NCBI GenBank assembly: GCA_041486085.1
Contig: JBGPKU010000004.1
Location: forward strand, 3,231-67,230
DNA length: 64,000 nucleotides
Direction: 5' to 3'
DNA from: Candidatus Limnocylindria bacterium
GTDB taxonomy: Bacteria; Chloroflexota; Limnocylindria; P2-11E
Made by a program: the position numbers and the translations under genes. Positions 34,766 through 48,438 of the stretch are shown here, piece by piece. The notes beneath the pieces were generated by a model, which did not search any database, was not told the DNA's origin, and saw only the letters and a list, made by a program, of their open reading frames with translations. How positions within the stretch are numbered: position 1 is the first letter of the stretch; each line of letters begins with the position of its first letter.

Positions 34766-35740
34766 TCAGGCGGTGACGAGCGAGCGGAGCGCGCGGCGCA
34801 CGAGCTCCCGCGCAAGCGTGACCTTATAGCCGTTGTCCCGCAGCGGCTGCGCGCCGTCGAGCAGCGCGTCCGCGGCCAAAAGACAGGCGTTGTCGTCGAG
34901 CGCGGTGCCCTCGAGCAGCTTCTCGGCGGCGGGCACGCGCCATGGCACCGGCGCGACCCCGCCCAGGACCAGCCGCACGTCGGTCGCCTTCCCGTCTTTC
35001 ACACGGGCGCTCGCGGCGACCGAGACGATCGCGAAGCTCCAGGCCTTGCGTTCCATCGCCTTGAGATACGTGCCGCGGCGGTCGAGCGCCTTCTCGGGGA
35101 TGCGGACAGCGGTGATGAGCTCGCCCGCGCGGATCGAGTGCTCGCGGCGCTCGCGGCCATGCGGTGCGATGAAGAGCTCGGCCAGCTTCATGCGTCGCTT
35201 CCCAAGGCTCGAGGAGATCTCGATCTCGGCGTCGCAGGCGATGAGCGCGGGCGCGAGATCGGACGGCGAGACCATCCAGCACTCGTGCGCTCCGACGACC
35301 GCGTGATAGCGGTTCTCGCCGTCGACGGCGAAGCATCGTTTCCCGCCTTTGAGCCAGCACGGCACGCCTTCGTCGCGGAAATACCAGCAGCGGTTGCGCT
35401 GCAGCAGGTTCCCACCGACCGTGCCCATGTTCCGGATCTGCGGCGTGGCTGCGTCTCGAAGCGACTGCGGCACGATCGGCATGAGCTTCGCGAGCTCAGC
35501 GGAGTGCTCGACCACCGATAGCGGCGTGAGCGCGCCGATGCGGATGCCGCGGCCTTTCTCGCGCGCGATGCCGCGCAGGCCTGCGATGCCGGTCAGGTCC
35601 ACGAGCCGGTCGGGACGGGCGACGCCGTGACGCACCAGGGTCACCAGATCGGTGCCGCCGGCGAGCGCGATGGTCCCGTTCTTCAGCAGCTTCAGCGCTT
35701 CGGCAAGAGCCCGGGGGCGAGCGTAAGAGAAGAGGCTCAC
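34766..35740 (-). CDS. FAD-binding subunit, xanthine dehydrogenase family, cluster 3
   Basis: 324 aa; LAGGTDL and GTVGGN motifs; GTG start. Confidence 0.9.
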   Translation of the reverse strand: MSLFSYARPRALAEALKLLKNGTIALAGGTDLVTLVRHGVARPDRLVDLTGIAGLRGIAREKGRGIRIGALTPLSVVEHSAELAKLMPIVPQSLRDAATPQIRNMGTVGGNLLQRNRCWYFRDEGVPCWLKGGKRCFAVDGENRYHAVVGAHECWMVSPSDLAPALIACDAEIEISSSLGKRRMKLAELFIAPHGRERREHSIRAGELITAVRIPEKALDRRGTYLKAMERKAWSFAIVSVAASARVKDGKATDVRLVLGGVAPVPWRVPAAEKLLEGTALDDNACLLAADALLDGAQPLRDNGYKVTLARELVRRALRSLVTA

Positions 35741-35764
35741 CCGCTCACCGCCATCCCATTTGGC

Positions 35765-38059
35765 TCACGCCATGGCTCCGGCGATGGCCAGCGCCTCGAG
35801 GACACGCGCGCGGGTCATCGGCGCGTGCCGCACGCGGGCGCCGGTCGCGTTCGCGACCGCGTTGGCGACCGCGGCCGCGGTCGGGATGATCGGTGGCTCG
35901 CCGAGGCCCTTCGCGCCGAGGTTGTTCGCCTTGCGGTCCGGCGTATCGACGAATCGCACGACGATCTCCGGCGCGTCCATCGCCGTGGGGATCTCGTACC
36001 ACTCGAGGTTCGCGTTCATCACGCGGCCCAGGCCGCGGTCGACGATGCGCTCCTCGGTCAGGGCGAAACCGAGCGCCTGCATCACGCCGCCCTGCACCTG
36101 ACTCGCGGCCGTGAGCGGGTTGACGATGCGCCCGATGTCGTGCACCGCGACGATCTTCTCGACGAAGATCTCGCCGGTCCGCACGTCGACCTCGACCTGC
36201 GCGAAGTGCGCGCCGAACGTCTTTATCGCGAGGCCCGTCGGATTCGGATGGCGCAGGCCGGTGCCGACGATGGTGCTGTTCGAGAGCTTCGAGAGGATCT
36301 CCCGCAGCGGCGTGCGGGCACCCTTGCTCACGACGACGCCGCGCTCCAAGCGCAGCTCGTCCGCGCGCACTTCGAGCACCCCGCCCGCGGCGGCGAGCAG
36401 CTTCGCGCGCGCCTCGTTCGCGGCGAGGCGCACGGCCGGGCCGATGGACGCGAGCGTCACGGATCCGCCCGAGCCCGGCCCGTACGGCGCATCGGTGTCG
36501 CCGATACGAACGGTCACCTGGTCGAGGGTGAGGCCGATCTCATCGGCGCAGATCTGTGCGACCGCGGTGCGCGTCCCGGTGCCGATGTCCTGCACGCCGA
36601 CGCGGAGAACCGCGGTGCCGTCCGTTTCGAAGTGCACGTCGGCGTACGCCGGCGGCCCGCCGCCACCACCCCAGATCTGTGTCGCCATGCCGAGCCCCCG
36701 GCGGCGATGCGGCGCGGACCCGCGCATGCCTGCGGCCTTGCGCTTGCTCCAGCCGATCTCCTTCGCCCCGATGGCGTAGCAGTCCATGAGGCGCTTCAGC
36801 GTGTAGCGGTTGCCGGTGCGCGGATCGATCGCGCTCCGGGCATGTCGGCGGCGCAGCGTGAGCGGGTCGACGTTCATCGCTGCGGCGAGCTCGTCCACCG
36901 CCGACTCGAGCGCGAACGTGCCCTCGACGTAGCCCGGTGCGCGGAACGCCGACAGGGCGCCGGCGTTGGTCATCACCCGGTGCGCCGTGCTCGCGATGTT
37001 CGCGATGTCGTAGAGCGTGTTGGTGGGTCCCGTGGGATTCGCGGCCCAGCGGCCCTGGCCCGAGTTCGACCAGGACTCGTGCTCGAGCGCGACGATCCGG
37101 CCGTCCTTGCCACCGAGACGCAGGTGCTGCAGCGTCGCCGACCGGTTGCCCGCGGCGAGATTCTCCTCGCGCCGCGAGAGGATGCACCGCACCGGACGGC
37201 CAAGGCGCATGGAGAAGAGCGAGGCGTACAGCGAGTACTTGTACGTGCCCAGCTTCGCGCCGAAGCCGCCGCCCATGTACTCGCAGATGACGTGGACTTT
37301 CGCGGGGTCCATCTTCAGCGCGTTCTTGATCATGTTGCGGACTTCGAAGATGCCCTGCGTTGACTCCCAGACCGTGAGTCGATCACCATCCCACGACGCG
37401 ACCGCGCCATGCGTCTCGAGCGCGTTGTGCATCTGTGTGGAGGTGCGGTAGGTCGCCTCGACCGTGACCACGGCGTCCTTGAAACCCTTGCGCGCGTCCC
37501 CGCGCTTGTACGAGCCGGCGTCGAACACGTTCCCCTCCGGGGTCAGCTTCGGCGCCTTGTCTCGGATGGCTTCTTCGAGATCGACGACGTGCGGCAGGAT
37601 CTCGTAGTCCACCGCGATGAGTCCGAGAGCGACGCGCGCGATGTCTTCGTCGTCGGCGACGACCGCGGCAACATCGTCTCCGACGAAACGGACCTCTTCG
37701 CGGAAGATCGTCTTCTCGCTGCGGAACTCGATCTCCGGCACGTTGAATCGATGCAGGATGCCGCGCACACCGGGCAGCGCCTCGGCCTTCTTCGTGTCGA
37801 TCGCGCGCACGCGTGCGCGGGGGTAAGGGCTGCGGAGGATGAGCGCGTGCAGCATGCCCGGCAGGATCACGTCCTGCGTGTACCGCGCGGTGCCGCTCAC
37901 GCGGCTGCGGCCGTCCACCCGTGGCCGCGCGCGGCCGATCTCGCTCGAATCGGCGCCGTCCTTCGGCGCGGGAAGGTCGTTGCCCTCGACGATGACGGTC
38001 GATGTGTAGATCTCGCCCTCGAACTCATCCTTGCTCACCAGGACGCGCAGACCCGGCAT
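35765..38059 (-). CDS. Molybdopterin-binding subunit, xanthine dehydrogenase family, cluster 3
   Basis: Start moved to MPGLRV, whose ATG overlaps the stop of the upstream [2Fe-2S] gene (ATGA); about 764 aa. The listed Arg-rich N-terminus is an artefact. Confidence 0.9.
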   Translation of the reverse strand: MPGLRVLVSKDEFEGEIYTSTVIVEGNDLPAPKDGADSSEIGRARPRVDGRSRVSGTARYTQDVILPGMLHALILRSPYPRARVRAIDTKKAEALPGVRGILHRFNVPEIEFRSEKTIFREEVRFVGDDVAAVVADDEDIARVALGLIAVDYEILPHVVDLEEAIRDKAPKLTPEGNVFDAGSYKRGDARKGFKDAVVTVEATYRTSTQMHNALETHGAVASWDGDRLTVWESTQGIFEVRNMIKNALKMDPAKVHVICEYMGGGFGAKLGTYKYSLYASLFSMRLGRPVRCILSRREENLAAGNRSATLQHLRLGGKDGRIVALEHESWSNSGQGRWAANPTGPTNTLYDIANIASTAHRVMTNAGALSAFRAPGYVEGTFALESAVDELAAAMNVDPLTLRRRHARSAIDPRTGNRYTLKRLMDCYAIGAKEIGWSKRKAAGMRGSAPHRRRGLGMATQIWGGGGGPPAYADVHFETDGTAVLRVGVQDIGTGTRTAVAQICADEIGLTLDQVTVRIGDTDAPYGPGSGGSVTLASIGPAVRLAANEARAKLLAAAGGVLEVRADELRLERGVVVSKGARTPLREILSKLSNSTIVGTGLRHPNPTGLAIKTFGAHFAQVEVDVRTGEIFVEKIVAVHDIGRIVNPLTAASQVQGGVMQALGFALTEERIVDRGLGRVMNANLEWYEIPTAMDAPEIVVRFVDTPDRKANNLGAKGLGEPPIIPTAAAVANAVANATGARVRHAPMTRARVLEALAIAGAMA

Positions 38060-38541
38060 CAGGATTTCTTCGCCGCGGCGACGCCGGCGGCGACGATGTT
38101 GTTGTACGCGCCGCACCGGCAGAGATTGCCGGCGACGGCTCGGCGCACGTCGTCTTCACGCGCCGCGGGATTCGCGCGCAGCAATGCGACGACGGACATC
38201 ACCTGGCCCGGCGTACAGAAGCCGCACTGGTACGCATCGTGGTCGATGAACGCCTGCTGGACCACGTGGAGCTTCCCATCGCGCGACAATCCCTCGATCG
38301 TCTCGACGGTCCGGCCCTCGCAGGCGATCGCCAGCGTCAGGCAGGAGTAGACCGGACGGCCATCGACGATGACCGTGCACGCGCCGCAGTCTCCTTCGTT
38401 GCACACCTTCTTCGTGCCGGTGAGCCCAAGCGACTCACGGACAGTGTCGAGGAGCGAGCGATGCGGAGGGACATGCACCGTGACGTCCTGTCCGTTCACG
38501 TTGAGGGAGATATCGAGCGCGCCCGGCCCGCGGAATTGCAT
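38059..38541 (-). CDS. (2Fe-2S)-binding subunit, xanthine dehydrogenase family, cluster 3
   Basis: Start taken at MQFRGPG (may extend to 38676); CNEGDCGACTV plus CGFCTPG...CRCGAY. Confidence 0.85.
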   Translation of the reverse strand: MQFRGPGALDISLNVNGQDVTVHVPPHRSLLDTVRESLGLTGTKKVCNEGDCGACTVIVDGRPVYSCLTLAIACEGRTVETIEGLSRDGKLHVVQQAFIDHDAYQCGFCTPGQVMSVVALLRANPAAREDDVRRAVAGNLCRCGAYNNIVAAGVAAAKKS

Positions 38542-38757
38542 CTCCGACCCATCGTATCGAGGCGGGCGCTCCGATGAATTGGGCAGGGGCGACGACGCTG
38601 GGACACCGCGAGGCGTTCGCCCCGGGCACGCGCTGGCGTGCTCTTGTGTCGCGAACGGCACAGAAGGAACGTGCAACGTGCCCGTGGCGCCGCGCGGGCA
38701 TCACCGCAAGCCGCCGTATGCTCGCGTCCGACAGCGGCGGGGAGGATCCACATCGGT

Positions 38758-39633
38758 ATGGCCATCCAGAAGGTCGGCATCGTCGGCTTCGGGCAGATGG
38801 GCTCGGGCATCGCGCAGGTCTGCGCCATGGCCGGCTTCGACGTTCTCGCGCGCGAGATCGATCAGAAGTTCATCGACAACGGCCTCGGGCGCATCGACGG
38901 ATCCCTCGCCCGCGTGGTCAAGTCCGGAAAGGTGACGCAGGACGACGCAAGGGCCGCACGCAGCCGCATCCGCGGGACGACGTCGCTCGCGGACTTCGCC
39001 GATCGCGATCTGGTCATCGAGGCGGTCATCGAGGTGATCGACGCGAAGAAGGAAGTCTTCGGCGAGCTGGACCGCGTCTGCCCCGCGTCGACGATCTTCG
39101 CGTCCAACACGTCGAGCCTGACGATCATCGAGATCGCGAGCGCCACGAAGCGCGCGGACCGTTTCGCGGGTCTGCATTTCTTCAACCCGCCGGTGGTCAT
39201 GCAGCTCGTCGAGATCGTGCGCGCGCTCACGACGAGCGACGCCACGGTCCAGGCGCTGCGCGAGTTCGTGATCAAGCTGGGCCACCAGCCAGCGGTCTGC
39301 AAGGACACACCCGGCTTCATCGTGAACCGCCTGATGATCCCGCTCATGCTCGAGGCGGTCCGGGCGCTCGAGGCGGGCGTCGCCTCCGTCGAGGACATCG
39401 ACAAGGCCGTCAAGCTCGGTCTGCGTCATCCGATGGGACCGTTCGAGCTCATCGATTACACCGGGGTCGACATCAACTATCACGTGGCCAACGTCTTCTT
39501 CGAGGAGTTCAAGGATCCGAGGTGGGCGCCGCCGGCGCTGCTCAAGCGCATGTACCTCGCGGGACAACTGGGAGTGAAGACAGGCCAGGGCTTCTACGAG
39601 TACGACGAGCAAGGGAAGAAGAAGACGCAATAG
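38758..39633 (+). CDS. 3-hydroxyacyl-CoA / 3-hydroxybutyryl-CoA dehydrogenase (NAD-binding)
   Basis: IVGFGQMGSGIA Rossmann motif and C-terminal 3HCDH domain; ATG preceded by GGGGAGGA. Confidence 0.9.
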   Translation: MAIQKVGIVGFGQMGSGIAQVCAMAGFDVLAREIDQKFIDNGLGRIDGSLARVVKSGKVTQDDARAARSRIRGTTSLADFADRDLVIEAVIEVIDAKKEVFGELDRVCPASTIFASNTSSLTIIEIASATKRADRFAGLHFFNPPVVMQLVEIVRALTTSDATVQALREFVIKLGHQPAVCKDTPGFIVNRLMIPLMLEAVRALEAGVASVEDIDKAVKLGLRHPMGPFELIDYTGVDINYHVANVFFEEFKDPRWAPPALLKRMYLAGQLGVKTGQGFYEYDEQGKKKTQ

Positions 39634-39713
39634 ACAGCCCCGAGGCGATCCGCACCGATACGACGAAGGCGGCGATCTGGGGCGCGGTCGCGGGGCTCGC
39701 GCAGTTCGGTGCG

Positions 39714-40151
39714 GTGGCCTTCGGCAAGGGTTTCTTCCCTGACTGGTACTTCCTCCTGATCGCGCTCGGCTACGGACTCCTTCTGCCCGTGCTCGCCGCG
39801 CTCCACGTCCGGCAGAGCGCCGTACGGCAGAGCGGAGCCGTGCTCGCGACGAGCGCCGGCACGGCGACCATCACGGTCGGCATCGCCGCCTCCGTGAACA
39901 CGGATCTCGTGGTGGCCGCGCTCCTCGTGCGCGGGATCTGGTGGTGGACGACCGGGAAGATGTGGGCCGAGACCGGGGTCGTCCCGCGCTGGCTCGGATT
40001 CCCAACGATGCTGCTCGCCGTCCTGACGATCGTCGCAGCGGTCGCGTCTGCCCCGCTGAACATGCAGAGTCAGACGCTGTGGACGGCCGAGCGCATCGTG
40101 CTTGGCGCGTGGACGCTCGCTCTGGCGTTCGCGCTGTGGCGCACGCGCTGA
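39714..40151 (+). CDS. Hypothetical membrane protein
   Basis: About 145 aa with 4 TM helices; GTG start is a guess (no ATG in frame). Confidence 0.4.
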   Translation: MAFGKGFFPDWYFLLIALGYGLLLPVLAALHVRQSAVRQSGAVLATSAGTATITVGIAASVNTDLVVAALLVRGIWWWTTGKMWAETGVVPRWLGFPTMLLAVLTIVAAVASAPLNMQSQTLWTAERIVLGAWTLALAFALWRTR

Positions 40152-40194
40152 ACGATGGTCACCGCGGGGCCGATCGTTCGGTACCATCGACCCC

Positions 40195-41223
40195 GTGGCA
40201 GTGACCTCGAGCACACGGCACGGGGAGCTCGGTCTTTCGCTCGATGACCTGAAGAGCATGTACTGCTACATGCTCATGACGCGAATGGTCAGCGAGCGGA
40301 TCCTGCAGCTGAACCGGATGGGCCGCACCCCGTTCGGCGCCGGCACCGATGGTCACGAGGCGGCGCAGATCGGCGCCGCGTGGAACATCCGCCGCGGCAA
40401 GGACTGGACCGTTCCTTACTACCGCGACATGGGGGTCGCGTTCGTTCTCGGCGTCACGCCGCTCGAGGAATTCCGCATGGTCCTCGCGAAGGCGACGGAC
40501 GAGCACTCCGCGGGACGCCAGGTCCTGAACCAGTTCTCCAAGCCGCGCGATCGCATCGTGACGCGGTCGGTGTGCGTGGCGACGGAGTTCCCGCACGCCG
40601 TCGGCCTCGCGCTGGCGATCCGCAACCGGAAGGAAGAGAACATCGTCTTCGTGTTCGGCGGCGATGCCTCCACCAGCCCCGGCGACTTCCACGAGGCCGC
40701 GAACTTCGCGGCGGTGCACAAGCTACCGGTCGTGTTCGTCATCGAGAACAATCTGCTCGCGATCTCGACGCGGTTCGAGTGGCAGATGGCCGTTCGAAAC
40801 GTGGCCGACAAAGCCTCCGGCTACGGCATGCCAGGCTTCATCGCAGATGGGATGGACGTGCTCGATTCGTACGCGAAGACAAAGGAGGCGGTCGAGTTCA
40901 CGCGCGCCGGAGGCGGACCGACGCTCGTGGAGCTCAAGTGCTACCGCTATCAGCCGCACACATCCGATGACGACGACATGCGGTATCGCACGAAGGACGA
41001 AGTCCAGGAGTGGAAGGCGAAGGATCCGATGGACCGCGGGAAGCGGTACCTGCTCGAGGCCGGCGTGACCGAGAAGGAGATGGCCGACATGCGCGCGGGT
41101 CTGGATGCCGACATCGAAGCGGCGATCGCGCAGGCCGAGAGCGAACCGGACCCGCGCCCCGAGGACGCCATGCGCCACGTGTACGCGGAGGGTCAACCGG
41201 TGCCCGACGGCACGCGCGCCTAA
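40195..41223 (+). CDS. Thiamine-diphosphate-dependent 2-oxoacid dehydrogenase E1 component alpha subunit (orphan; no beta subunit gene adjacent)
   Basis: GDG-x24-NN TPP motif region (VFGGDASTSPGDFHEAANFAAVHKLPVVFVIENN); GTG start chosen to avoid overlap with the upstream gene. Confidence 0.75.
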   Translation: MAVTSSTRHGELGLSLDDLKSMYCYMLMTRMVSERILQLNRMGRTPFGAGTDGHEAAQIGAAWNIRRGKDWTVPYYRDMGVAFVLGVTPLEEFRMVLAKATDEHSAGRQVLNQFSKPRDRIVTRSVCVATEFPHAVGLALAIRNRKEENIVFVFGGDASTSPGDFHEAANFAAVHKLPVVFVIENNLLAISTRFEWQMAVRNVADKASGYGMPGFIADGMDVLDSYAKTKEAVEFTRAGGGPTLVELKCYRYQPHTSDDDDMRYRTKDEVQEWKAKDPMDRGKRYLLEAGVTEKEMADMRAGLDADIEAAIAQAESEPDPRPEDAMRHVYAEGQPVPDGTRA

Positions 41224-41229
41224 CCCTGC

Positions 41230-42363
41230 ATGCGCGTCCTCACGCTCCTTCTCGCGGTCGCCCTCGCTGCGTGCACGAACAACCCACAGGTGACGCTTCC
41301 GACACCCGTCCCGACGCGCGAGCCAGGAATCGTGAACGTGTCAGTGCTCCTCGACCTTTCGGGACCGCGCTCGCCGAGCGGCCAACCGCAGCGCGACGCC
41401 ATGCAGATCTGGATGGATCAACCGCGCACGAGCCTGATCAAGCTACGGGTGAGGTTCGTGGACGTGGCGGGGTCGGACGCGAAGCTCCTGCTCGAGCTCC
41501 GTCGCGCCGTCATCGATGATCGCGCCGATGCCATCATCATCGGCGCCGCGACGCCGCCTGGGGACACGTTGACGCAGGCGATCCAGGTCGCGTCCGTCCC
41601 GGTTCTGCTCACGCTGCCCGTGGCCGATCCAGCTTCGGGCATCGGCGGCCGCTTCACCTTCGCGCTTGCCCCGACACCCGCCGCGATCGCGCGCACGCTC
41701 GCGGACGACCTTATCGGGCGCGACCTGCTCGCTCCGATGCTGCTGGCCGGAGACGAATCTGCGGCAGCCGTCGTCGAGCGCTCGGCGCTTGTCGCCGAGC
41801 TGCAAAGGCGGTCCATCGTCGCGCCAAGCCCGGTCAGCCTCGCGATGCCCGGCAGCGCGCAACGCGTGCGCGATGCCGCGGCCGTCGCGAAGAGCGTCGT
41901 GATTTTCGGAGCGAGCGCGTCGTACGGCGACCTGATCCGCTCGATCCCGACCAACGCGACCGCGCTACGCGTGTACCTGTCGTACCTCACGGAGACCGCG
42001 GATGTCACCAATCTCCGCGAGCAGAGCACGTTGGTGACGTGGCCGGGCTCACGGTCGCTGCTGCCTGGCTTCGTCACGACACAGGACCAGCGCGCCTTCC
42101 TCCAGGAATTCCGCAATCGCCATGGCGCGCCGAGCACGCTCGCCGCCACCGCCTACGATGCGCTCGGCCTGATCGACGCCGCGGCGCGGCAGGCGCCGAC
42201 GGAGCTCGACGGCGCGCGTCTGCGGCTGCGACTGGAGACGGGGGCGTTCTTGGGAGTGGTGACTCGGTACAGCTTCACGCCTCAGCGCCACACCGGCTTC
42301 ACGGCGGATGATCTGCTCTATCTGCGCTGGGACGCCCAGCGAGACAGGCCGGCGCTGCCATGA
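41230..42363 (+). CDS. Lipoprotein, periplasmic binding protein type 1 (branched-chain amino acid / amide ABC substrate-binding-like)
   Basis: Signal plus lipobox LAACT; type 1 PBP fold sequence pattern. Confidence 0.65.
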   Translation: MRVLTLLLAVALAACTNNPQVTLPTPVPTREPGIVNVSVLLDLSGPRSPSGQPQRDAMQIWMDQPRTSLIKLRVRFVDVAGSDAKLLLELRRAVIDDRADAIIIGAATPPGDTLTQAIQVASVPVLLTLPVADPASGIGGRFTFALAPTPAAIARTLADDLIGRDLLAPMLLAGDESAAAVVERSALVAELQRRSIVAPSPVSLAMPGSAQRVRDAAAVAKSVVIFGASASYGDLIRSIPTNATALRVYLSYLTETADVTNLREQSTLVTWPGSRSLLPGFVTTQDQRAFLQEFRNRHGAPSTLAATAYDALGLIDAAARQAPTELDGARLRLRLETGAFLGVVTRYSFTPQRHTGFTADDLLYLRWDAQRDRPALP

Positions 42364-43568
42364 ACGACGCGCTCATCTACGACTGGAACCGCGATGGTCG
42401 CGCGGCGAAGGCCGACTACCGCGCGGTGGAGCTGGACGACGAGACGCTGCGCGACGGCCTTCAGGGGCCGAGCGTGCGCAACCCGCCGCTCGAGGTGAAG
42501 AAGCGGCTGCTCCATCTCATGGACCAGCTCGGCATCGAGAGCGCCGACATCGGTCTGCCTGGCTCGTCGTACCGCGCGCGCAGCGACATCGTCGCGCTGG
42601 CGAAGGAGACGACCAAGCTCAAACTGCTCAAACCGAACATGGCCCTGCGCACGCATGCGGCGGATGTAAAGGAGGCGATCGAGGCCGCGCAAGAGGCTGG
42701 TGTGGCGATCGAGGCGTGCGCCTTCATCGGCTCCTCGCCCATCCGCCGGTTCGCCGAGGACTGGGCCATCGACGACATGCTGCGCAGCGTGGACGAATCG
42801 GTCAGCGCGCTGGTGAAGGCCGGTCTGCCGGTCATGTTCGTCACCGAGGACACCACGCGCGCCGACGTTGACAGCCTGCTGAAGCTCTACGAGGCCGCGA
42901 TCGCGGCCGGCGCCGGACGGATCTGCGCGTCGGACACCGTTGGCCATGCCACGCCGGAGGGCGTGCGCAACCTGCTCACCTTCCTGAGGAAGGACGTGAT
43001 CAGAGGACGCGACGTCGCGCTCGACTACCACGGACACAACGATCGCGGCCTTGGGACGATCAACGCCCTCACGGCGACGGCGATCGCCGACCGCGTGCAT
43101 GGCTGCGCGCTCGGGATCGGCGAGCGCGTCGGCAACACCTCGATGGATCAGCTGCTCATCAACATGCAGCTCTGGGGTCTGGGCGACCGCGACCTGTCGG
43201 CGCTGGTGGAATACGTGTCGCTCGTATCGGAGCACTGCGGCATTCCGATCCCGACCAACTATCCGGCGCTCGGGTCCGACGCGTTCCGCACCGGCACCGG
43301 CGTGCACGCGGCGGCCGTGATCAAGGCACTGCGCATGGGCGATCGCGCGCTCGCCGATCGGGTCTACTCGGGCGTGCCGGCCTCCGTGCTCGGGCGCGAG
43401 CAGCGGATCGAGGTCGGCCCGATGTCCGGCAAGTCGAACGTGATCTTCTGGCTGGAGTCGCACGGCTTCGAGCCGACAGCGGAGCGCGTCGCGCGGATCT
43501 TCGATCGTGCGAAGGCGAGCGACCGGCTTCTCACGGCGGAGGAGCTCGAGACGCTCGCGCGCGCCTGA
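42360..43568 (+). CDS. 2-isopropylmalate synthase / homocitrate synthase family protein (LeuA-like, catalytic domain only; no C-terminal regulatory domain)
   Basis: ELDDETLRDGLQ ... HGHND...G pyruvate-carboxyltransferase (DRE-TIM) motifs; 402 aa. Confidence 0.85.
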   Translation: MNDALIYDWNRDGRAAKADYRAVELDDETLRDGLQGPSVRNPPLEVKKRLLHLMDQLGIESADIGLPGSSYRARSDIVALAKETTKLKLLKPNMALRTHAADVKEAIEAAQEAGVAIEACAFIGSSPIRRFAEDWAIDDMLRSVDESVSALVKAGLPVMFVTEDTTRADVDSLLKLYEAAIAAGAGRICASDTVGHATPEGVRNLLTFLRKDVIRGRDVALDYHGHNDRGLGTINALTATAIADRVHGCALGIGERVGNTSMDQLLINMQLWGLGDRDLSALVEYVSLVSEHCGIPIPTNYPALGSDAFRTGTGVHAAAVIKALRMGDRALADRVYSGVPASVLGREQRIEVGPMSGKSNVIFWLESHGFEPTAERVARIFDRAKASDRLLTAEELETLARA

Positions 43569-43593
43569 TGGCCCATCGCGAGAGCGCGCAGCG

Positions 43594-44259
43594 ATGAGGA
43601 TCGAGGACCTGTTTCCGCTGCACATGGCGGACGTCACCTATCCCGATGGCCACCCGCTCGCGGGGCAGACCGGTCCGGTCAACGCGTTCGCCGTGCGCCT
43701 CGCCGACGGACTGGTCCTCGTCGACACGGGCATCGGGACGGGCAACGCGTGGATCGACGAGCACTACCGGCCACAGGGTCGCGCGATCCGTGATGCGCTG
43801 CGCAGCGCGCAGCTCGATCCGGACGCGGTGCGCCTGGTCATAAACACGCACCTGCACTTCGATCACTCAGGGCAGAACTCGGCCTTCCCCGGCGTGCCCA
43901 TCGTCGTGCAGCAGGCCGAGTGGGACGTCGCGTGGCACGACGGATTTACGGTGACGGAGTGGCTCGATTTCGCAGAGGCGCGCTACGAGCGGATCAGCGG
44001 CGATGTCGAGGTCGCTCCAGGCGTGCGCGCGCTTGCGACGCCCGGGCACACACCCGGCCATCAGTCGGTGACCATCGAGACGGAAGATGGCCTCGTCCTC
44101 ATCGTCGGTCAGGCCGCCCAGGACGCGCGCGCGTTCGCGACCGGCGAGGCGGACGAGTCCATCCGGCGCCTGCGCGCGCTGAACGCGGAGCGTATCCACT
44201 TCTCGCACGAGCGCGGGACGTTGAAGCGGAAGCCCGTTGCGCCCGCGGTGAAGAATTAG
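43594..44259 (+). CDS. MBL-fold metallo-hydrolase (lactonase-like)
   Basis: HLHFDH zinc motif, ...TPGHTPGH. Confidence 0.8.
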   Translation: MRIEDLFPLHMADVTYPDGHPLAGQTGPVNAFAVRLADGLVLVDTGIGTGNAWIDEHYRPQGRAIRDALRSAQLDPDAVRLVINTHLHFDHSGQNSAFPGVPIVVQQAEWDVAWHDGFTVTEWLDFAEARYERISGDVEVAPGVRALATPGHTPGHQSVTIETEDGLVLIVGQAAQDARAFATGEADESIRRLRALNAERIHFSHERGTLKRKPVAPAVKN

Positions 44260-44621
44260 CGCGAAGCGGGCGTCGCCCAGGCCGGCTTCCCGAACCATTC
44301 GAGAAGCACCCGGTCGAGAACGAAGATCACGAACAGAAGCACGCCCCACGGCCACAGCCCGATGGCGGCGAGCGCACCGGTGCCGAGCAGGAATAGCGCG
44401 GACTCGAGCAGCAGGCGCGTGTTCCCCAAAAGACGGCGTGGGGCCATGGGCGCGACGAAGAGTGCCCACATCGCGATGAGCATGGCCGGGAGCCCGATGC
44501 CCAGGATCACGCCGGCGATCCCCGGGAAGGTGAAGCCGAACGACCAGTACGCCGCGACGAGACACAGCTCCAGAAGGAATCGCAGGACCGCAAGCAGCGA
44601 CTGGATGACGGCCACGCGCAA
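44256..44621 (-). CDS. Small integral membrane protein
   Basis: 121 aa, 3-4 TM helices. Confidence 0.4.
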   Translation of the reverse strand: MRVAVIQSLLAVLRFLLELCLVAAYWSFGFTFPGIAGVILGIGLPAMLIAMWALFVAPMAPRRLLGNTRLLLESALFLLGTGALAAIGLWPWGVLLFVIFVLDRVLLEWFGKPAWATPASR

Positions 44622-44677
44622 AGCCTAGCCCCGCCGCGCGCAGGAACGACGCTGGCCGCGCATGACAAGATGAGGGT

Positions 44678-46720
44678 GTGACGACGACTCCACACGCGGG
44701 AACGATCGCGCCGGCGCGGCTCCTGCCCGGCGCAATGGTCGGCGAGGCAAGCAAGACGAAGGCGGCCGGCGCCGCGAGCGCCGCGACGCTGATCCGCGGG
44801 AAGGCGCTGATCTTCTGGGACCCGAAGGTACCGGGCAAGAAGCTCGACGCGATCGACACGGACCAGATCACGCCGGCGAACGACTGCGTCTCGGAGAGCC
44901 TCGACACGCTGGACGCGCGCTGGAAGGCGGGATCCTTCCGCTTCCTCATGCCGGACTTCGTGGAGCGCGTCGCGCGCGGCGAGAGCTTCATCGTGGCCGG
45001 CGACCGCTTCGCGATCGGATCCTCGCGTGAGATGAGCCCGGCGGGCCTCAAGGGTGTGGGCGACGAGGCCGGGCACGAGATCGTGATCGTCTGCGGCGCG
45101 GGGATGGGCGACATCTTCCGCCGCAACGCGCTCAACCTCGGGCTGCACGTGGTCCAGAGCCGCGAGGCTGTGCAGGACGCGCAGGAGGGTGACGAGCTCT
45201 CGTTCGATCCAATCAATCGAGCTCTCCGTAATGAGACCCGCGGAAAGTCGTACGACGCCGCGGCACTGAGCGAGAACGAGGACCAGATCCGCCGCTCTGG
45301 CGGGATCATCAAGGTCGGGCGGCGTGAATTCGAGGAGTCGGTGCGTCGAGCACCTCAGATCGTCTGGCCAGAACATCGCATCGCACGCAAGCTCTCTTCC
45401 ACCGAGCAGATCCTGTGGTCGCATCGCGTCGACAAGGACGCCGAGGTGCGGCCGGGCGCGACCATTCGCGTCTACGCGGACCTGCTGCCGGCGTCGGACG
45501 GCACCGGGCCGTTCTCGATCCACACCTTCAACCAGATCAGCGGCGGGGACACGATCTACCCGCGCCAGGTCGCCTACGCGAACGATCACTTCGTCTTCAA
45601 CCACCGCGACGCCGACGACAGGCAGACCGGCATCGGCAAGCAGTTCGCGGATCACTACAAGATCGGCAAGCCGCAGTACGCAACGCCCGGCGACGGTATC
45701 TTCCATTTCTACTTTCCGGAACAGGGTCTCGTCGTGCCCGGTGCGCTGATCCCCGGAGCCGACTCGCACAGCCGCGCGTACGGCGCGTATGGCGCGCTGG
45801 GGTATGGCGTCGGCTCGACCACGCTCGGATTCGGCTGGGCCACCGGCTACGTCTACTTCACGAACGCGAAGCAGCGGCGCGTCCGCTTCACGGGAAAGCT
45901 GAACCCATGGGTCAGCGGGAAGGACGTGGTGCTCGCGCTTCTCGCGCGTTGGGGCGCCAAGCAGTCGGGCGGCATGAGCGTCGAGTTCGTCGACGCGTCG
46001 AAGCAGCTGCCAATGAGCTATCGCAACACGATCGCGAACATGATGGCCGAGGGCGAGGCGACCAACGGGATCTTCGCGCCGGACGAGACGACGCTGACAT
46101 GGTTCCGCGAGAAGAACATCGCGCTTCCCTACCCGCAGTTCGGTCCAGGCGAGGACGTGCCGTGGGAGATCGACGAAGAGCTGGATCTCTCGGCGGTCGA
46201 GCCGCTCATCGCGAAGCCGTTCTCGCCCGGGAACGCATTCCCCGCGTCCGAGGTCGCGCGCGAGCGCATTCCGTTCGACAAGGCCTTCATCGGATCGTGC
46301 ACCAACGGCGGATACGGCGACCTGCTGGAGGCCGCGCTCGTGATCAAAGCCGCGAAACTGAAGGGCGCGAAGAAGGCGGCGATGGAGTTCGTGATCTTCC
46401 CAGGCTCGGGCGCGGTCAAACAGGACATCGAGCGGACCGATGCGCGCCTGGGCGGCGAATCCATCGCGGATGTGTTCCGCTCGGTCGGCGCAGAGATCCG
46501 CGAATCGTGGTGCGGACCCTGCTTCGGCCAGGGACCCGATGCCCTGGTGAAGGGCCAGACCGCGATCACGTCGTTCAACCGCAACTGGGCAAACCGCATG
46601 GGTGTGGGCGGCCTGGGCTACCTCGCATCGCCCTCGGTCGTCGCGGCGTCGGCGCTCCTCGGCTACATGGGTCCGCCGAGCGAGCTCGGCATCGACTGGA
46701 AGCCGGAGGGCTTCATCTAG
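44678..46720 (+). CDS. Aconitase-family [4Fe-4S] hydro-lyase with permuted architecture: N-terminal LeuD-like swivel domain fused to C-terminal LeuC-like catalytic domains
   Basis: N-terminus RGKALIFWDPKVPGKKLDAIDTDQITPA (LeuD signature). C-terminus has GSCTNGG and CGPCFGQG cluster ligands in the same relative positions as LeuC. Confidence 0.85.
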   Translation: MTTTPHAGTIAPARLLPGAMVGEASKTKAAGAASAATLIRGKALIFWDPKVPGKKLDAIDTDQITPANDCVSESLDTLDARWKAGSFRFLMPDFVERVARGESFIVAGDRFAIGSSREMSPAGLKGVGDEAGHEIVIVCGAGMGDIFRRNALNLGLHVVQSREAVQDAQEGDELSFDPINRALRNETRGKSYDAAALSENEDQIRRSGGIIKVGRREFEESVRRAPQIVWPEHRIARKLSSTEQILWSHRVDKDAEVRPGATIRVYADLLPASDGTGPFSIHTFNQISGGDTIYPRQVAYANDHFVFNHRDADDRQTGIGKQFADHYKIGKPQYATPGDGIFHFYFPEQGLVVPGALIPGADSHSRAYGAYGALGYGVGSTTLGFGWATGYVYFTNAKQRRVRFTGKLNPWVSGKDVVLALLARWGAKQSGGMSVEFVDASKQLPMSYRNTIANMMAEGEATNGIFAPDETTLTWFREKNIALPYPQFGPGEDVPWEIDEELDLSAVEPLIAKPFSPGNAFPASEVARERIPFDKAFIGSCTNGGYGDLLEAALVIKAAKLKGAKKAAMEFVIFPGSGAVKQDIERTDARLGGESIADVFRSVGAEIRESWCGPCFGQGPDALVKGQTAITSFNRNWANRMGVGGLGYLASPSVVAASALLGYMGPPSELGIDWKPEGFI

Positions 46721-47285
46721 CGATCAGCTTCTCGAGCTGGCGCAGCGCCTTGTCGAGACCGTCCGCCGAAGCCGGGCTCCCCGGGAGCAGATAGACGCCC
46801 CGGAGCGTCGCGACCACCACCGCCGCCATGCCGTCGGGATCGATCGCCTCTCTGATCGCGCCTTCGTCACGTGCGCCGCGCAACAGCGTGCGCAGCGTGC
46901 CGTGCCAGAACTCCATCGTCTTTCGAATGATCTCGCCGAGCTTGGGGTCGCGCGACGAGCGGAGCATCAGCTCTCCCATCACCGCGAACAGCTCCGGCTC
47001 ATCGCGCGACAGGCGCCGCAGACCATGGAAGTGCGCGCGAAGCCGCTGCGACGCGGTCCCCGTCGAGGTGAGCGTCGACTGGAACCTCGTCATCGCATGA
47101 CCGATCACGCCCTTGATGAGATCTTCCTTCGACGGGAAGTAGTAGTGGAGCGTGGCGATATTCACGCCGACCTCGCCGGCGACCTCGCGCGTGCGCAGAC
47201 CTTCGAACCCGCGCTCGGCGATGACCCGGTATGCGGCGGTCACGAGGGCTTCTCGCTTCCCTTCTGGCACTTGACTCTCAATCAA
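46713..47285 (-). CDS. TetR/AcrR-family transcriptional regulator
   Basis: N-terminal HTH (LRTREVAGEVGVNIATLHYYF); TTG start. Confidence 0.85.
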   Translation of the reverse strand: MIESQVPEGKREALVTAAYRVIAERGFEGLRTREVAGEVGVNIATLHYYFPSKEDLIKGVIGHAMTRFQSTLTSTGTASQRLRAHFHGLRRLSRDEPELFAVMGELMLRSSRDPKLGEIIRKTMEFWHGTLRTLLRGARDEGAIREAIDPDGMAAVVVATLRGVYLLPGSPASADGLDKALRQLEKLIAR

Positions 47286-47297
47286 TCAGATGATTGA
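47284..47297. promoter_or_regulatory. Palindrome CAATCA-ga-TGATTG in the divergent TetR / Ddn-like intergenic region (candidate TetR operator)
   Basis: Perfect 6-bp arms overlapping the TetR start. Confidence 0.3.
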
Positions 47298-47334
47298 ATC
47301 ACAGGAGGTCTCCGAGCGCAACGGAGGTATCTCA

Positions 47335-47730
47335 ATGGCACGCACAGTACGACGACTCACACGTGCTCTGAATCCGATGCTCATGGGTCTCGCGTCCAGT
47401 GGATGGATCCCCGTGTGGGCTCTCGTCACGCACGTCGGCCGGCGATCGGGTCGCGTGTACCGGACGCCGATCGCGATCCGTCCGACCGCGTCAGGGTTCG
47501 TGATCCCGCTTCCCTGGGGCGACGGCACCGACTGGTGCCGCAACCTGATCGCGGCGAACGGCGGCGTCGTCCGCTGGAAGGGCGCCGATTACCCGGTCGT
47601 CGCGCCGGAGGTCGTGGAGCGTTCGGTGGCCGCACCGGCATTCCCAGCTGCGCTTCGTGCGCTGCTGCCGGTGCTCGGGATCAAGCGTTTCCTCGCGGTG
47701 CATCGCGTCGACGCGGCGCCGGTCGCGTAG
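47335..47730 (+). CDS. Deazaflavin (F420H2)-dependent nitroreductase-family oxidoreductase (Ddn-like, DUF385)
   Basis: Start at the internal MARTV; N-terminal pattern of the Ddn family (RTPIAIRPTASGFVIPLPWG). Confidence 0.7.
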   Translation: MARTVRRLTRALNPMLMGLASSGWIPVWALVTHVGRRSGRVYRTPIAIRPTASGFVIPLPWGDGTDWCRNLIAANGGVVRWKGADYPVVAPEVVERSVAAPAFPAALRALLPVLGIKRFLAVHRVDAAPVA

Positions 47731-47766
47731 CGCAGGGGTCGGTGCAGTGGCGCAACAGCGATCGGG

Positions 47767-48438
47767 TCAGCGCAGGTACAGGAGAGCGGTCGGCAGGTTC
47801 GCGGCCAGATCCCACAAGCCGACCGCGATGAGGACGGCGCCCGCGATGCGCGAGACCACGCGTTGATGATGCGTGAAGAGCCGCAGCAGCGCACGCTGCC
47901 TGCCTTCGGCCGCGAGCGAGATCAAGAGAAGCGGCACACCGAAGCCGAGGCCGAAGACGAGGAAGAACAGCATCTTCTCGGCGAACGACACGACGCCGAT
48001 CGAAAGCGTGAAGATGGCCACGAGGAGCGCGCCGGAGCATGGGAGCGCGATCGGCCCGTACATCAGGCCGTAGGCGAACGCCGACCGCGCGCGCGAGCCG
48101 CCCGTCGTCGCGCCCGCGAGAACAGGTAGCCGCGAGAACGGATCGAGGCCGATCAGCAACGCACCTCCGAGCGCGACGACCGCCAGGTCCGCGAGGGGCG
48201 TCACGATGACGAGCACCCTGCCGATCGCGACCGAGAGCGCCGCGATGAGCGCACCGAGCGCGACCATCATCGTGAGCACGCCGCCGAGGACATAGACCCC
48301 GAGCCAGCGCGCGGATCCGCGCTCTCCCGCGCCTCCCGCCGCGAGGTACGCGAGGAAGCCGGGATAGAGCGGGAGCGCGCACGGAGAGAACGTCGCGAGG
48401 AGGCCGATGCCGAAGGCAGCGCCCAGCTGCTCGAGCAC
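47767..48438 (-). CDS. ccdA: Cytochrome c biogenesis thiol-disulfide transporter CcdA (DsbD beta-domain family)
   Basis: TFSPCALP and LPCSGALL paired Cys motifs in 6 TM helices. Confidence 0.85.
   Translation of the reverse strand: MLEQLGAAFGIGLLATFSPCALPLYPGFLAYLAAGGAGERGSARWLGVYVLGGVLTMMVALGALIAALSVAIGRVLVIVTPLADLAVVALGGALLIGLDPFSRLPVLAGATTGGSRARSAFAYGLMYGPIALPCSGALLVAIFTLSIGVVSFAEKMLFFLVFGLGFGVPLLLISLAAEGRQRALLRLFTHHQRVVSRIAGAVLIAVGLWDLAANLPTALLYLR

Follow-up and report, generated by a model that had tools for sequence, protein, structure and literature searches.

Two enzymes encoded close together in a Limnocylindria MAG, of an uncultured Chloroflexota bacterium of sediment/soil, form a third, deeply diverged leucine-type set, apart from the leucine and lysine-AAA sets: a condensing enzyme (synthase) of the LeuA/HCS family and a single-chain isomerase of the aconitase superfamily. 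On balance, it seems somewhat probable that they constitute a dedicated 2-oxoacid homologation (alkylmalate) module feeding a branched-chain-type 2-oxoacid dehydrogenase. The set counts as the third because the genome encodes, beside the pair in the window (the whole stretch of 64,000 nucleotides analysed here), canonical leuC and leuD elsewhere (763 and 223 bits against NCBIfam cut-offs of 510 and 167, respectively), a LeuA-type synthase (523 bits), a lysine HCS/HacA/HacB set and AcnA. With the leucine-type or lysine-type paralogues of the same genome, the window proteins share about 29% identity; in profile searches, they fall far under all curated NCBIfam cut-offs. A preliminary description of this DNA had argued for a role other than housekeeping leucine synthesis and had proposed a search for leuA, leuC and leuD elsewhere in the genome; the leuC, leuD and LeuA-type genes found bear it out on this point, and its homologation reading is also the one that fits best, given the third paralogous set, the common distribution of the two genes and their linkage to E1/E2.

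The open reading frames lie where the preliminary description had placed them (table 1), including those for 3HCDH, E1alpha and the binding protein upstream of the pair, but it had overlooked the small membrane-protein gene between the first two. The product of the latter, without a match in a Pfam search, belongs to no known family; a 167-aa gene occupies the matching position in the relatives L013 and L014. In Limnocylindria, the 3-hydroxybutyryl-CoA dehydrogenase gene is conserved upstream of the module (syntenic in L013, L033, L037, L038 and L029); it was not found in the Dormibacteria clusters. The stop of the binding-protein gene overlaps the start of the synthase gene (ATGA); the binding protein keeps its position across genera at an identity of just 36-45%, and it matches solved binding proteins only weakly. 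The MBL, DUF2568 and TetR genes are local, lineage-specific additions rather than core parts. The hydrolase and the regulator, both present, had been counted into the pathway; however, the MBL gene, confined to genera g1 and g5, is probably a lineage-specific, non-core insertion (its product scores 110 bits with the AiiA model, cut-off 375), and the TetR gene, absent from the syntenic relatives L013 and L014 and divergent from a deazaflavin-dependent nitroreductase-like gene at 47290-47730, probably lies outside the module. A small reverse-strand gene is found at the DUF2568 position in L013 and L014 too, and the DUF2568 gene is missing in genomes where the synthase and isomerase genes abut. 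Because this minus-strand gene stands between the MBL gene and the fused one, the latter forms a transcription unit by itself in the window. A molybdo-hydroxylase gene set also lies near the module, and no regulatory RNA was found at it.

Table 1. Features of the locus (positions in the window).
Feature	Position	Strand	Remarks
3-hydroxybutyryl-CoA dehydrogenase	38758..39633	+	Pfam 3HCDH_N, 3HCDH; NCBIfam NF005875 354 bits, cut-off 319
Small multi-pass membrane protein	39714..40151	+	start uncertain (39642-39714); hydrophobic segments in open frame
E1alpha (TPP-binding), alpha/beta-type 2-oxoacid dehydrogenase	40195..41223	+	start uncertain (40102, 40195 or 40201); Pfam E1_dh 270.8 bits
Solute-binding lipoprotein, exported, Leu/Ile/Val-binding fold	41230..42363	+	Pfam Peripla_BP_6; signal peptide with lipobox LAAC
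LeuA/HCS-family acetyl-CoA:2-oxoacid condensing enzyme (predicted), 402 aa	42360..43568	+	Pfam HMGL-like only; core part
MBL-fold hydrolase, lactonase-like	43594..44259 (alternative start 43507)	+	Pfam Lactamase_B, intact HLHFDH motif
DUF2568 membrane protein	44256..44621	-	Pfam DUF2568; inserted between MBL and isomerase genes
Swivel-first (4-1-2-3) single-chain aconitase-superfamily isomerase/hydratase (predicted), 680 aa	44678..46720	+	core part
LeuD-like swivel domain, residues 57-215	44846..45322	+	GSSRE motif; family-specific recognition loop ANDCVS
LeuC-like catalytic domains 1-3, residues 242-667	45401..46678	+	cluster cysteines C541, C612, C615
TetR-family regulator	46713..47285	-	Pfam TetR_N

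The synthase, whose best NCBIfam score is 184.8 bits (cut-off 517), is made up of a single Pfam HMGL-like domain, and a LeuA_dimer domain was not detected in it by Pfam search, in keeping with the earlier claim that a C-terminal regulatory domain is missing. In an alignment with solved HCS/IPMS structures, its Arg-Asp, HxH and catalytic His motifs find their counterparts. Like members of the LeuA/HCS/citramalate synthase family (T. thermophilus HCS, 3a9i; Sulfolobus HCS, 6ktq; N. meningitidis IPMS, 3rmj), it has an HMGL-like TIM barrel followed by a C-terminal subdomain, and its metal site (Arg-Asp/HxH) and catalytic His are conserved. Besides the regulatory domain, it differs in a GLQ instead of a GEQ motif, and is 29% identical to the LeuA-type and HCS enzymes of its own genome. 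In the alignment, Arg133 and Ser135 of T. thermophilus HCS are replaced by Met and Val; we take these two residues to bind the distal carboxylate of 2-oxoglutarate, as Okada and colleagues reportedly described in 2010.

In the isomerase, profile matches place the LeuD/swivel part (NCBIfam TIGR02087, 72.6 bits) ahead of the LeuC/aconitase part (NF001614, 288.8 bits). The motifs GSSRE (114), DSH (362), SCTN (540), CGPC (612) and NRN (634) are invariant in 23 homologues; the catalytic residues are thus all intact, and so are the cluster ligands (SCTN and CGPC), as had been noticed before. The order from swivel to catalytic domains is confirmed at the level of a predicted structure: the AF2 model (pLDDT 90.1, pTM 0.91) has E. 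coli AcnB (1l5j) as top Foldseek match (E 1e-38, TMq 0.74 over 725 columns), with which it shares the domain order 4-linker-1-2-3, but not the HEAT-like N-terminal domain of AcnB, from which it is also set apart by a TIGR00117 score of 70 bits (cut-off 1287) and a structural identity of 19%. Thus, the preliminary description was right in calling the permutation AcnB-like, whereas the swivel-first order is not unique to this isomerase family. The nearest sequences with solved structures are those of M. jannaschii IPMI/homoaconitase (MJ0499/MJ1277, MJ1003/MJ1271; PDB 4kp1, 4kp2, 3vba), at 28-29% identity (157-159 bits for the large subunit, 55 bits for the small one), with the fold (TMt 0.87-0.88), the Cys ligands and the DSH, NRN and GSSRE motifs in common; however, these enzymes consist of two separate subunits, whereas the window isomerase is one chain with the small-subunit part first, under every NCBIfam cut-off. 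In the phylogeny, the family is a separate clade (SH-aLRT 100), which branches off among the archaeal-type large subunits of IPMI and HACN on a long stem (1.32 substitutions per site). Since the isomerase is, by sequence, of IPMI/HACN type, its permutation arose independently of that of AcnB. Roles of the GSSRE motif and the recognition loop have been described before (PMC7308503), and the loop of the window isomerase differs from those of the LeuD and HacB of the same genome.

The synthase and the isomerase follow one common phyletic pattern, made up of one Limnocylindria order and Dormibacteria. The isomerase is present in 63 of the 66 genomes of family f1, the only genome of f2 and none of the 133 genomes of f3-f5 in the same class (57/66, 1/1 and 0/133 for the synthase); in a sample of the phylum, it also occurs in 7/8 Dormibacteria genomes (f19). 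In at least 18 genomes (genera g2, g4, g6, g7 and g9), the two genes are co-directional and 26-50 nt apart, and the order E1alpha-binding protein-synthase(-isomerase) is conserved across Limnocylindria genera; the neighbourhood comparison proposed beforehand thus finds adjacency of the pair in many genera, and neither the MBL nor the TetR gene conserved with it. More distant isomerase homologues (P0124 and P0129) are 40-45% identical; no synthase gene was found beside them on their short contigs. The pair is near-universal, with 70-90% identity throughout entire families, as in core metabolism, which speaks against the preliminary suggestion of a specialised-metabolite module to which the MBL hydrolase and TetR would belong and whose product would be an unusual 2-oxoacid of a coenzyme-B-like or phosphinomethylmalate/FR900098-like kind. 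Such chemistry, to which the high divergence of the sequences, under all curated cut-offs, and the presence of the MBL and TetR genes in the window would lend themselves, is very improbable: PEP mutase, NRPS, PKS and tailoring genes are all absent, the sole ICL-family neighbour reaches 48 bits against a PEP mutase cut-off of 320, and the supposed additional members do not accompany the pair.

The E1alpha encoded upstream of the synthase finds its best solved match, over residues 20-340, in the E1alpha of T. thermophilus branched-chain 2-oxoacid dehydrogenase (1um9; 244 bits versus 181 for PDH 1w85), from which it differs in that its gene is parted from the beta-E2 genes and sits in the synthase operon. 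Orthologues beside the module in f1 and f2 are 59-85% identical, against at most 44% elsewhere in the class. Matching beta-E2-LipA-LipB genes are located, in Limnocylindria, on contig C7, and the homologues in the module-less family f3 form one alpha-beta-E2-LipA operon. Therefore, the E1alpha, correctly described before as having no adjacent beta gene, is not functionally an orphan; it is the alpha subunit, relocated in Limnocylindria, of a complex encoded elsewhere. A further new observation comes from four genera of Dormibacteria, where a gene for a LeuB-type Iso_dh (NF002898, 399 bits, cut-off 393) lies 24 nt upstream of the isomerase gene, and the two are convergent with an overlapping E1alpha-E1beta-E2-synthase operon, which the synthase closes, so that the link with E1/E2 is found in two classes. 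Since that genome encodes four E2 proteins, the one beside the synthase does not belong to a sole housekeeping complex.

This association of synthase, isomerase and E1 outlasts a complete rearrangement between the two classes, with another strand layout and other partners, and makes it distinctly improbable that the genes are unrelated and owe their conserved synteny to the closeness of the genomes compared; most comparisons are, indeed, confined to one order, and no shared chemistry is evident for the genes of the binding protein, 3HCDH, MBL hydrolase and membrane protein, but both core genes have an identical presence/absence pattern. The order synthase-isomerase-dehydrogenase-2-oxoacid dehydrogenase also parallels an oxidative branch of the TCA cycle, and LeuA/HCS homologues act as Re-citrate synthases in Clostridium and Dehalococcoides. 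Yet an alternative branch of this kind, with a LeuA-like Re-citrate synthase and a second aconitase, is hardly credible in the presence of AcnA and of Si-type citrate synthases (two full-length matches in the genome; 25/28 family genomes), with an E1 of alpha/beta type, nearest to the branched-chain enzyme and unlike 2-oxoglutarate dehydrogenase, and with non-polar residues at the presumed carboxylate-binding positions of the synthase. Citrate (Re-synthase), biotin and phosphonate readings were each tested and then rejected.

In the homologation module that we favour, a small 2-oxoacid would most likely be lengthened by one carbon in a sequence of four steps: (i) the synthase would condense acetyl-CoA with a small non-polar 2-oxoacid to yield a 2-alkylmalate; (ii) the single-chain [4Fe-4S] enzyme would convert the latter, via the ene-acid, to the 3-alkylmalate; (iii) a LeuB-type dehydrogenase, whose putative gene adjoins that of the isomerase in Dormibacteria and would be located elsewhere in Limnocylindria, would carry out oxidative decarboxylation to the 2-oxoacid with one additional carbon; and (iv) an alpha/beta-type (branched-chain-like) 2-oxoacid dehydrogenase complex, its E1alpha presumably co-transcribed with the synthase, would form the acyl-CoA. 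We infer the chemistry of the two core enzymes from homology and gene context, as well as the class of substrate, the direction in which the flux would run and its hand-over to the complex; as to the substrate itself, one can but guess (2-oxobutyrate, pyruvate or a branched-chain 2-oxoacid), and the coupling could equally serve to supply an acyl-CoA donor rather than to use the product. No dedicated third dehydrogenase was found in Limnocylindria, where G004 (97% complete) has no more than an IDH candidate, one LeuB-type and one tartrate-dehydrogenase-type enzyme, so that step (iii) must borrow an enzyme. With pyruvate as the substrate, the synthase would be an (R)-citramalate synthase and the fused enzyme would isomerise citramalate, while LeuB would furnish 2-oxobutyrate, either as a precursor of isoleucine or for conversion by the dehydrogenase complex to propionyl-CoA. 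The missing regulatory domain, the neighbouring pyruvate/branched-chain-type E1, the apparently non-polar pocket positions and the Dormibacteria LeuB-type gene would all agree with this route, which is nevertheless rather unlikely: citramalate synthase models score very low (TIGR00977, 102 bits, cut-off 450; NF042433, 53 bits, cut-off 950), and known pathways reuse LeuCD, making a dedicated, strongly conserved isomerase needless. Furthermore, a full-length IlvA-type threonine deaminase is above the curated cut-off in 17 of 20 sampled module-bearing f1 genomes and just under it in 4/5 Dormibacteria genomes, but was found neither in the f2 genome nor in f3-f5; the module is therefore no substitute for the threonine route.

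The exported binding protein, amid an operon for cytoplasmic enzymes, has no explanation in the homologation reading. It would have one, substrate uptake, if the pair were catabolic, with the fused enzyme as hydratase of an unsaturated dicarboxylate (of maleate, citraconate or dimethylmaleate type) and the HMGL-fold protein as lyase/aldolase on the hydroxy-acid; Dmd- and maleate-hydratase-type enzymes are members of the LeuCD family, the molybdo-hydroxylase set and the 3HCDH gene are nearby, and, in genus g8, genes for an ICL/PrpB-like lyase and a LysR protein lie between the two genes. However, we consider a catabolic pair improbable, as the synthase can be aligned from end to end with the Claisen-condensing enzymes LeuA and HCS and retains their metal ligands and catalytic His, the Dormibacteria isomerase is coupled to a LeuB-type dehydrogenase rather than to a lyase, transporter permease or ATPase genes are absent near the module, and the lyase gene is found in one genus only. 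The homologation module, instead, has counterparts in the elongation sets of methanogens (AksA/D/E/F, for coenzyme B) and plants (MAM/IPMI-SSU2,3/IPMDH and isobutylmalate synthase), in which an extra synthase, isomerase and dehydrogenase stand beside the leucine set; in such dedicated sets, specificity is set by the recognition loop of the small subunit (PMC7308503; bioRxiv 10.1101/2021.09.28.462264). From these sets, the window module differs by belonging to another clade, by its fused swivel-first isomerase and by its link with a 2-oxoacid dehydrogenase complex.

The source genome is a 2.9 Mb metagenome-assembled genome, 82% complete, and the contig carrying the window (G000:C4) has a G+C content of 68%; the nearest homologues are labelled Candidatus Limnocylindria or Limnocylindrales, of the phylum Chloroflexota. 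Open reading frames were called by third-position G+C and assigned to families by Pfam and NCBIfam scans. Gene content and order are those of the preliminary description of this DNA, with the exception of the DUF2568 and small membrane protein genes, which it had overlooked.

Features of the window, with position and strand, chiefly in and around the operon of the LeuA-family synthase and the gene of the fused LeuD-LeuC isomerase
Feature	Position	Strand	Remarks
Fluoride riboswitch RF01734	1890-1957	-	41.9 bits (gathering score 34)
CoxS/L/M-like molybdo-hydroxylase	34766-38676	-	Family scans
3-Hydroxybutyryl-CoA dehydrogenase	38758-39633	+	NF005875, 354 bits (cut-off 319)
Small membrane protein	ends 40151	+	
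E1alpha, 2-oxoacid dehydrogenase	ends 41223	+	
Peripla_BP_6 protein with lipoprotein signal	41230-42363	+	Lipobox LAAC
HMGL-like/LeuA-family synthase, 402 aa	42360-43568	+	Start overlaps stop of Peripla_BP_6 gene
MBL-fold hydrolase	43594 (probable start)-44259	+	HLHFDH motif
DUF2568 gene	44256-44621	-	
Fused protein, 680 aa	44678-46720	+	
TetR gene	46713-47285	-	
Small deazaflavin-dependent nitroreductase-like gene	47290-47730	+	TIGR00026, 44.4 bits (cut-off 46.35); divergent from TetR gene

The fluoride riboswitch, a long way from the operon, was the sole match in an Rfam scan of the whole window, with neither a leader nor a riboswitch near the operon, and a promoter and terminator scan of 38000-47800 gave nothing exceeding shuffled expectation. 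Among the datasets listed as containing 40100-46720 there was no RNA set, the DNA sets being sediment metagenomes.

The fused protein resembles LeuD-type small subunits over residues 57-215 and LeuC/HacA-type large subunits over residues 242-667, as judged by NCBIfam profiles. It has the features that define the aconitase superfamily, namely three cluster cysteines, Asp-Ser-His, Asn-Arg-Asn, GSSRE and a four-domain fold, and the corresponding motifs (GSSRE, DSH, SCTN, CGPC and NRN) are invariant across 23 aligned homologues, down to 29% identity. The AlphaFold2 model computed from this alignment (pLDDT 90.1, pTM 0.91) finds Escherichia coli aconitase B (1l5j) as its top whole-chain Foldseek match (E 1e-38, TMq 0.74, 725 columns), while its C-terminal two thirds align with the large subunits of Methanocaldococcus jannaschii isopropylmalate isomerase (IPMI) and homoaconitase (TMt 0.87-0.88, 28-29% identity) and its N-terminal domain with LeuD structures. 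Motifs, model and structural match thus bear out the AcnB-like permutation with intact cluster ligands noted earlier. Three architectures are known in the superfamily, and the order 4-linker-1-2-3, with the swivel domain first, is one of these (PMC8184944). The fused protein and aconitase B share the domain order 4-1-2-3; however, the HEAT-like N-terminal domain of the latter is absent (no Aconitase_B_N or Aconitase_2_N Pfam match), and the score on TIGR00117 is only 70.5 bits against a cut-off of 1287, so that, by its sequence, the fused protein is an enzyme of the IPMI/homoaconitase type and not an aconitase B.

The fused protein also differs from the known enzymes of that type. LeuCD consists of two subunits encoded, large then small, in the leu cluster, whereas here a single 680-aa chain has the small domain first, scoring 165 bits on TIGR00170 (cut-off 560) and giving no match to TIGR00171; likewise, the scores on the HacAB models are 206 bits on NF040615 (cut-off 550) and 51 on NF010629 (cut-off 229), and the gene does not share the lysine or coenzyme B surroundings typical of HacAB. 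In IPMI and homoaconitase, substrate preference is set by the recognition loop together with GSSRE (PMC7308503). In the fused protein the loop that follows DTDQITP reads ANDCVS, unlike those of LeuD and HacB of the same genome, and relatives down to 40% identity keep the family pattern [AS]-x-[DF]-C-V-S. A literature search on swivel-first fusions of the IPMI type returned nothing usable beyond the two papers cited.

The window synthase has the catalytic HMGL-like barrel of LeuA (Pfam HMGL-like, 130 bits), and its Arg-Asp pair, HxH metal site and catalytic His align with those of solved isopropylmalate and homocitrate synthase (HCS) structures. It differs from LeuA in being without the LeuA_dimer regulatory domain (no Pfam match), in agreement with what had been noticed earlier, and its best score is 184.8 bits against a cut-off of 517; it scores 170 bits on the homocitrate synthase model TIGR02146 (cut-off 413) and, on the CimA models, 101.6 bits on TIGR00977 (cut-off 450) and 53 on NF042433 (cut-off 950). 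A short synthase is the rule in these genomes: in both the source genome and a 97%-complete relative (G004), with just four HMGL-like genes each, all three LeuA-family synthases are short (385-402 aa in the former), and the other two of the source genome stop before the regulatory region of full-length LeuA models. The residue-level comparison of substrate sites was made at two positions aligned to Thermus thermophilus HCS (3a9i), where Met and Val take the place of Arg133 and Ser135, presumably the contacts for the distal carboxylate of 2-oxoglutarate; nothing usable was found in a literature search for HCS residue numbering.

Enzymes of leucine and lysine synthesis, and the aconitase AcnA, are found elsewhere in the same genome. 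LeuC (763 bits, cut-off 510; 731 on TIGR00170, cut-off 560) and LeuD (223 bits, cut-off 167; 173 on TIGR00171, cut-off 116) are encoded on contig C6, adjoining ilvD, ilvA and a 393-aa LeuA-type synthase (523 bits) that is also without the LeuA_dimer domain; contig C28 encodes a homocitrate synthase (462 bits, cut-off 413) with HacA and HacB beside it, and contig C49 encodes AcnA. Identity of the window synthase to each of its two paralogues is 29%, that of the fused protein to LeuC, HacA, LeuD and HacB of its own genome is 27-32%, and both proteins fall far short of every curated NCBIfam cut-off. The window pair is, therefore, a third set, distinct from the leucine and lysine enzymes. The earlier view that these genes do not serve leucine synthesis holds, canonical LeuC and LeuD and a LeuA-type synthase being present on C6 and the window proteins being about 29% identical to the C6 and C28 sets.

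Synthase and isomerase have a common phyletic pattern. Among 200 genomes of the class, in tallies that include the unpublished genomes G091 and G148, the fused gene occurs in 63 of 66 genomes of one family (f1) and in the single genome of a second family of the same order (f2), and the synthase orthologue in 57 of 66 and 1 of 1, respectively; neither is found in the 133 genomes of the other three families. None of the conclusions rests on G091 or G148. In at least 18 genomes of five genera (g2, g4, g6, g7 and g9) the coordinates place the two genes co-directionally, 26-50 nt apart; the genus of the source genome (g1) and g5 have insertions of 0.8-11 kb at this point. Across genera, the conserved block comprises the 3-hydroxyacyl-CoA dehydrogenase and, further along, E1alpha, binding protein, synthase and isomerase. 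The MBL hydrolase and the TetR regulator, initially counted in the pathway, probably do not belong to it: the MBL gene is limited to g1 and g5, and a syntenic relative at 79% identity has no TetR gene, a likelier target of the regulator being the deazaflavin-dependent nitroreductase-like gene. In one g8 locus (L035, 8182-10561) a LysR gene and a gene for an ICL/PrpB-like lyase that reaches none of the cut-offs separate synthase from isomerase, with a DAHP synthase gene upstream. One g5 genome carries, at G070:C14:233-1441, a synthase copy just 57% identical, on a contig other than that of its isomerase, which could be a divergent paralogue or the product of mis-binning.

The E1alpha gene had been described as an orphan; a search for its partners leads to contig C7 of the source genome. 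Here, the genes for E2, lipoyl synthase and LipB come after an alpha-less E1beta, and together they fit as the missing partners, the sole other alpha/beta E1 pair of the genome lying on contig C78. The class includes a family without the module in which the homologues are united in one alpha-beta-E2-LipA operon (44%, 62%, 43% and 57% identity, respectively), and E1alpha orthologues at 59-85% identity are restricted to f1 and f2, always adjoining the module, the best match elsewhere being at most 44%. On these grounds, the best reading of the window E1alpha is that it supplies the alpha subunit of the C7 beta-E2 complex, its gene having probably been relocated into the synthase operon. A gene pair on contig C56, considered as a source of the missing E1beta, was set aside as a probable two-gene (split) transketolase, judging by gene sizes and order. 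The lone E1beta of C7 is preceded by an 811-aa E1alpha-E1beta fusion with weak family scores, an unusual arrangement (locus L048, G000:C7, 4495-11097). The nearest solved relative of the window E1alpha is that of the T. thermophilus branched-chain 2-oxoacid dehydrogenase (244 bits, against 181 for a pyruvate dehydrogenase E1alpha); this branched-chain character, along with Met and Val at the HCS Arg133 and Ser135 positions, suggests that the substrate of the module may be non-polar.

A LeuB-type dehydrogenase, which a classical cycle would employ, is not encoded beside the pair in the window; in f2 such a gene lies 5.5 kb from the synthase-isomerase pair. In the 97%-complete relative, the third Iso_dh-family protein is of the tartrate dehydrogenase type (L049, 1232-2293, G004:C36; TIGR02089, 523.6 bits, cut-off 470), and could be a dehydrogenase borrowed by the module or by lysine synthesis.

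The complete set is found in Dormibacteria, where, in a sample of 400 Chloroflexota, seven of the eight genomes of one family (f19), with proteins named Candidatus Dormibacter or Dormibacteraeota, carry the isomerase. In four genera a LeuB-type Iso_dh (NF002898, 399 bits, cut-off 393) lies 24 nt 5' of the fused isomerase, and this pair is convergent with an operon of overlapping E1alpha, E1beta, E2 and synthase genes; a second E1alpha-E1beta pair, an O-methyltransferase, an NCS1 permease and an M55 peptidase are encoded in the vicinity. The four genera keep the gene set even with shuffled order. Canonical LeuC, a LeuA-type synthase, HacA-like genes and a separate LeuB are likewise encoded in the genomes with the module and, since their E2 genes total four, the linked complex is more than just the sole housekeeping pyruvate dehydrogenase. 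In g2 of Limnocylindria a thiamin pyrophosphokinase gene directly 5' of E1alpha overlaps its start (L033, 5644-6309; L038, 13632-14297); this gene and the NCS1 (thiamine/purine-type) permease of Dormibacteria may serve to provide the TPP enzyme with its cofactor.

The module is a real, conserved and uncharacterized form of a known pathway type. Both enzymes keep their catalytic residues, and both have links to a LeuB-type dehydrogenase and to a 2-oxoacid dehydrogenase complex; most simply read, synthase, isomerase and LeuB-type dehydrogenase would lengthen a 2-oxoacid in a classical homologation cycle, and the lengthened product would be converted to an acyl-CoA through oxidative decarboxylation by the linked complex; both the direction of flux and this hand-over are inferences. 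The wider proposal, which we put forward as possible rather than probable, is that the Limnocylindria order and Dormibacteria run an undescribed core pathway, in which the product of a dedicated synthase, a swivel-first isomerase and a LeuB-type dehydrogenase would pass directly to an alpha/beta complex of its own. If so, it would represent a new route to one-carbon-extended acyl-CoA, serving e.g. as lipid starter unit or catabolic funnel, with an isomerase of a substrate specificity so far unreported for the aconitase superfamily.

Several other roles were considered and set aside. A Re-citrate synthase with an extra aconitase, weighed through gene context, was rejected in view of AcnA and of Si-type citrate synthases, which have two full-length matches and one partial match in the source genome and are matched in 25 of the 28 genomes examined from the family. 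Elongation to 2-oxosuberate, leading to pimeloyl-CoA for biotin, was rejected as BioB exceeds its cut-off in none of 61 genomes of the class, which suggests biotin auxotrophy across the class, as sampled in these genomes. A B12-free propionyl-CoA bypass via 2-oxobutyrate elongation finds no support, genes of the methylmalonyl-CoA-mutase family occurring in 41 of 41 genomes, nor does a citramalate route replacing threonine deaminase, full-length IlvA being present in most sampled module-bearing genomes and not found in the module-less families. Finally, the specialized-metabolite role suggested at the outset did not hold up: for phosphonate-type homologation (Pms/Pmi, FrbA-C), no PEP mutase was found in the window or in 14 related loci, the sole ICL-family neighbour found (in L035) scoring 47.8 bits against the PEP mutase cut-off of 319.55.

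Cells in general lengthen 2-oxoacids by homologation of the LeuA/LeuCD/LeuB type, as in the synthesis of leucine, lysine, coenzyme B and glucosinolates. Here, nearly all members of two abundant lineages, uncultured and from soil and sediment, carry a third homologation set; to our knowledge, the link of such modules to a 2-oxoacid dehydrogenase complex has not been described, and we know of no curated model that names the swivel-first isomerase architecture. In public annotation the module genes go under isopropylmalate dehydratase large subunit or aconitase family protein, and with such names the metabolism of Limnocylindria and Dormibacteria would be wrongly reconstructed. The substrate, once found, would give the aconitase superfamily a further specificity class, and the compact single-chain isomerase could serve engineered keto-acid elongation pathways. 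What is new here is the common phyletic pattern of synthase and isomerase, the complete module in Dormibacteria, the E1/E2 gene link that accounts for the orphan E1alpha, and the rejection of several substrates.

In a tree of large-subunit domains, the isomerases of Limnocylindria and Dormibacteria and the distant homologues P0124 and P0129 (40-45% identical) form one clade (SH-aLRT 100), which branches among archaeal-type large subunits with a stem length of 1.32 substitutions per site. The two distant homologues and a fusion of archaeal context (P0219) lie on short contigs with no informative neighbours. Four further swivel-first fusions, from the 50%-identity sequence library, are dispersed among split enzymes, and the fusion order has thus arisen more than once. 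The Dormibacteria isomerases (loci L044-L047) nest within those of Limnocylindria and, between the two classes, the isomerase is 72% identical and the synthase just 53%, which hints at a transfer of the isomerase gene from one class to the other.
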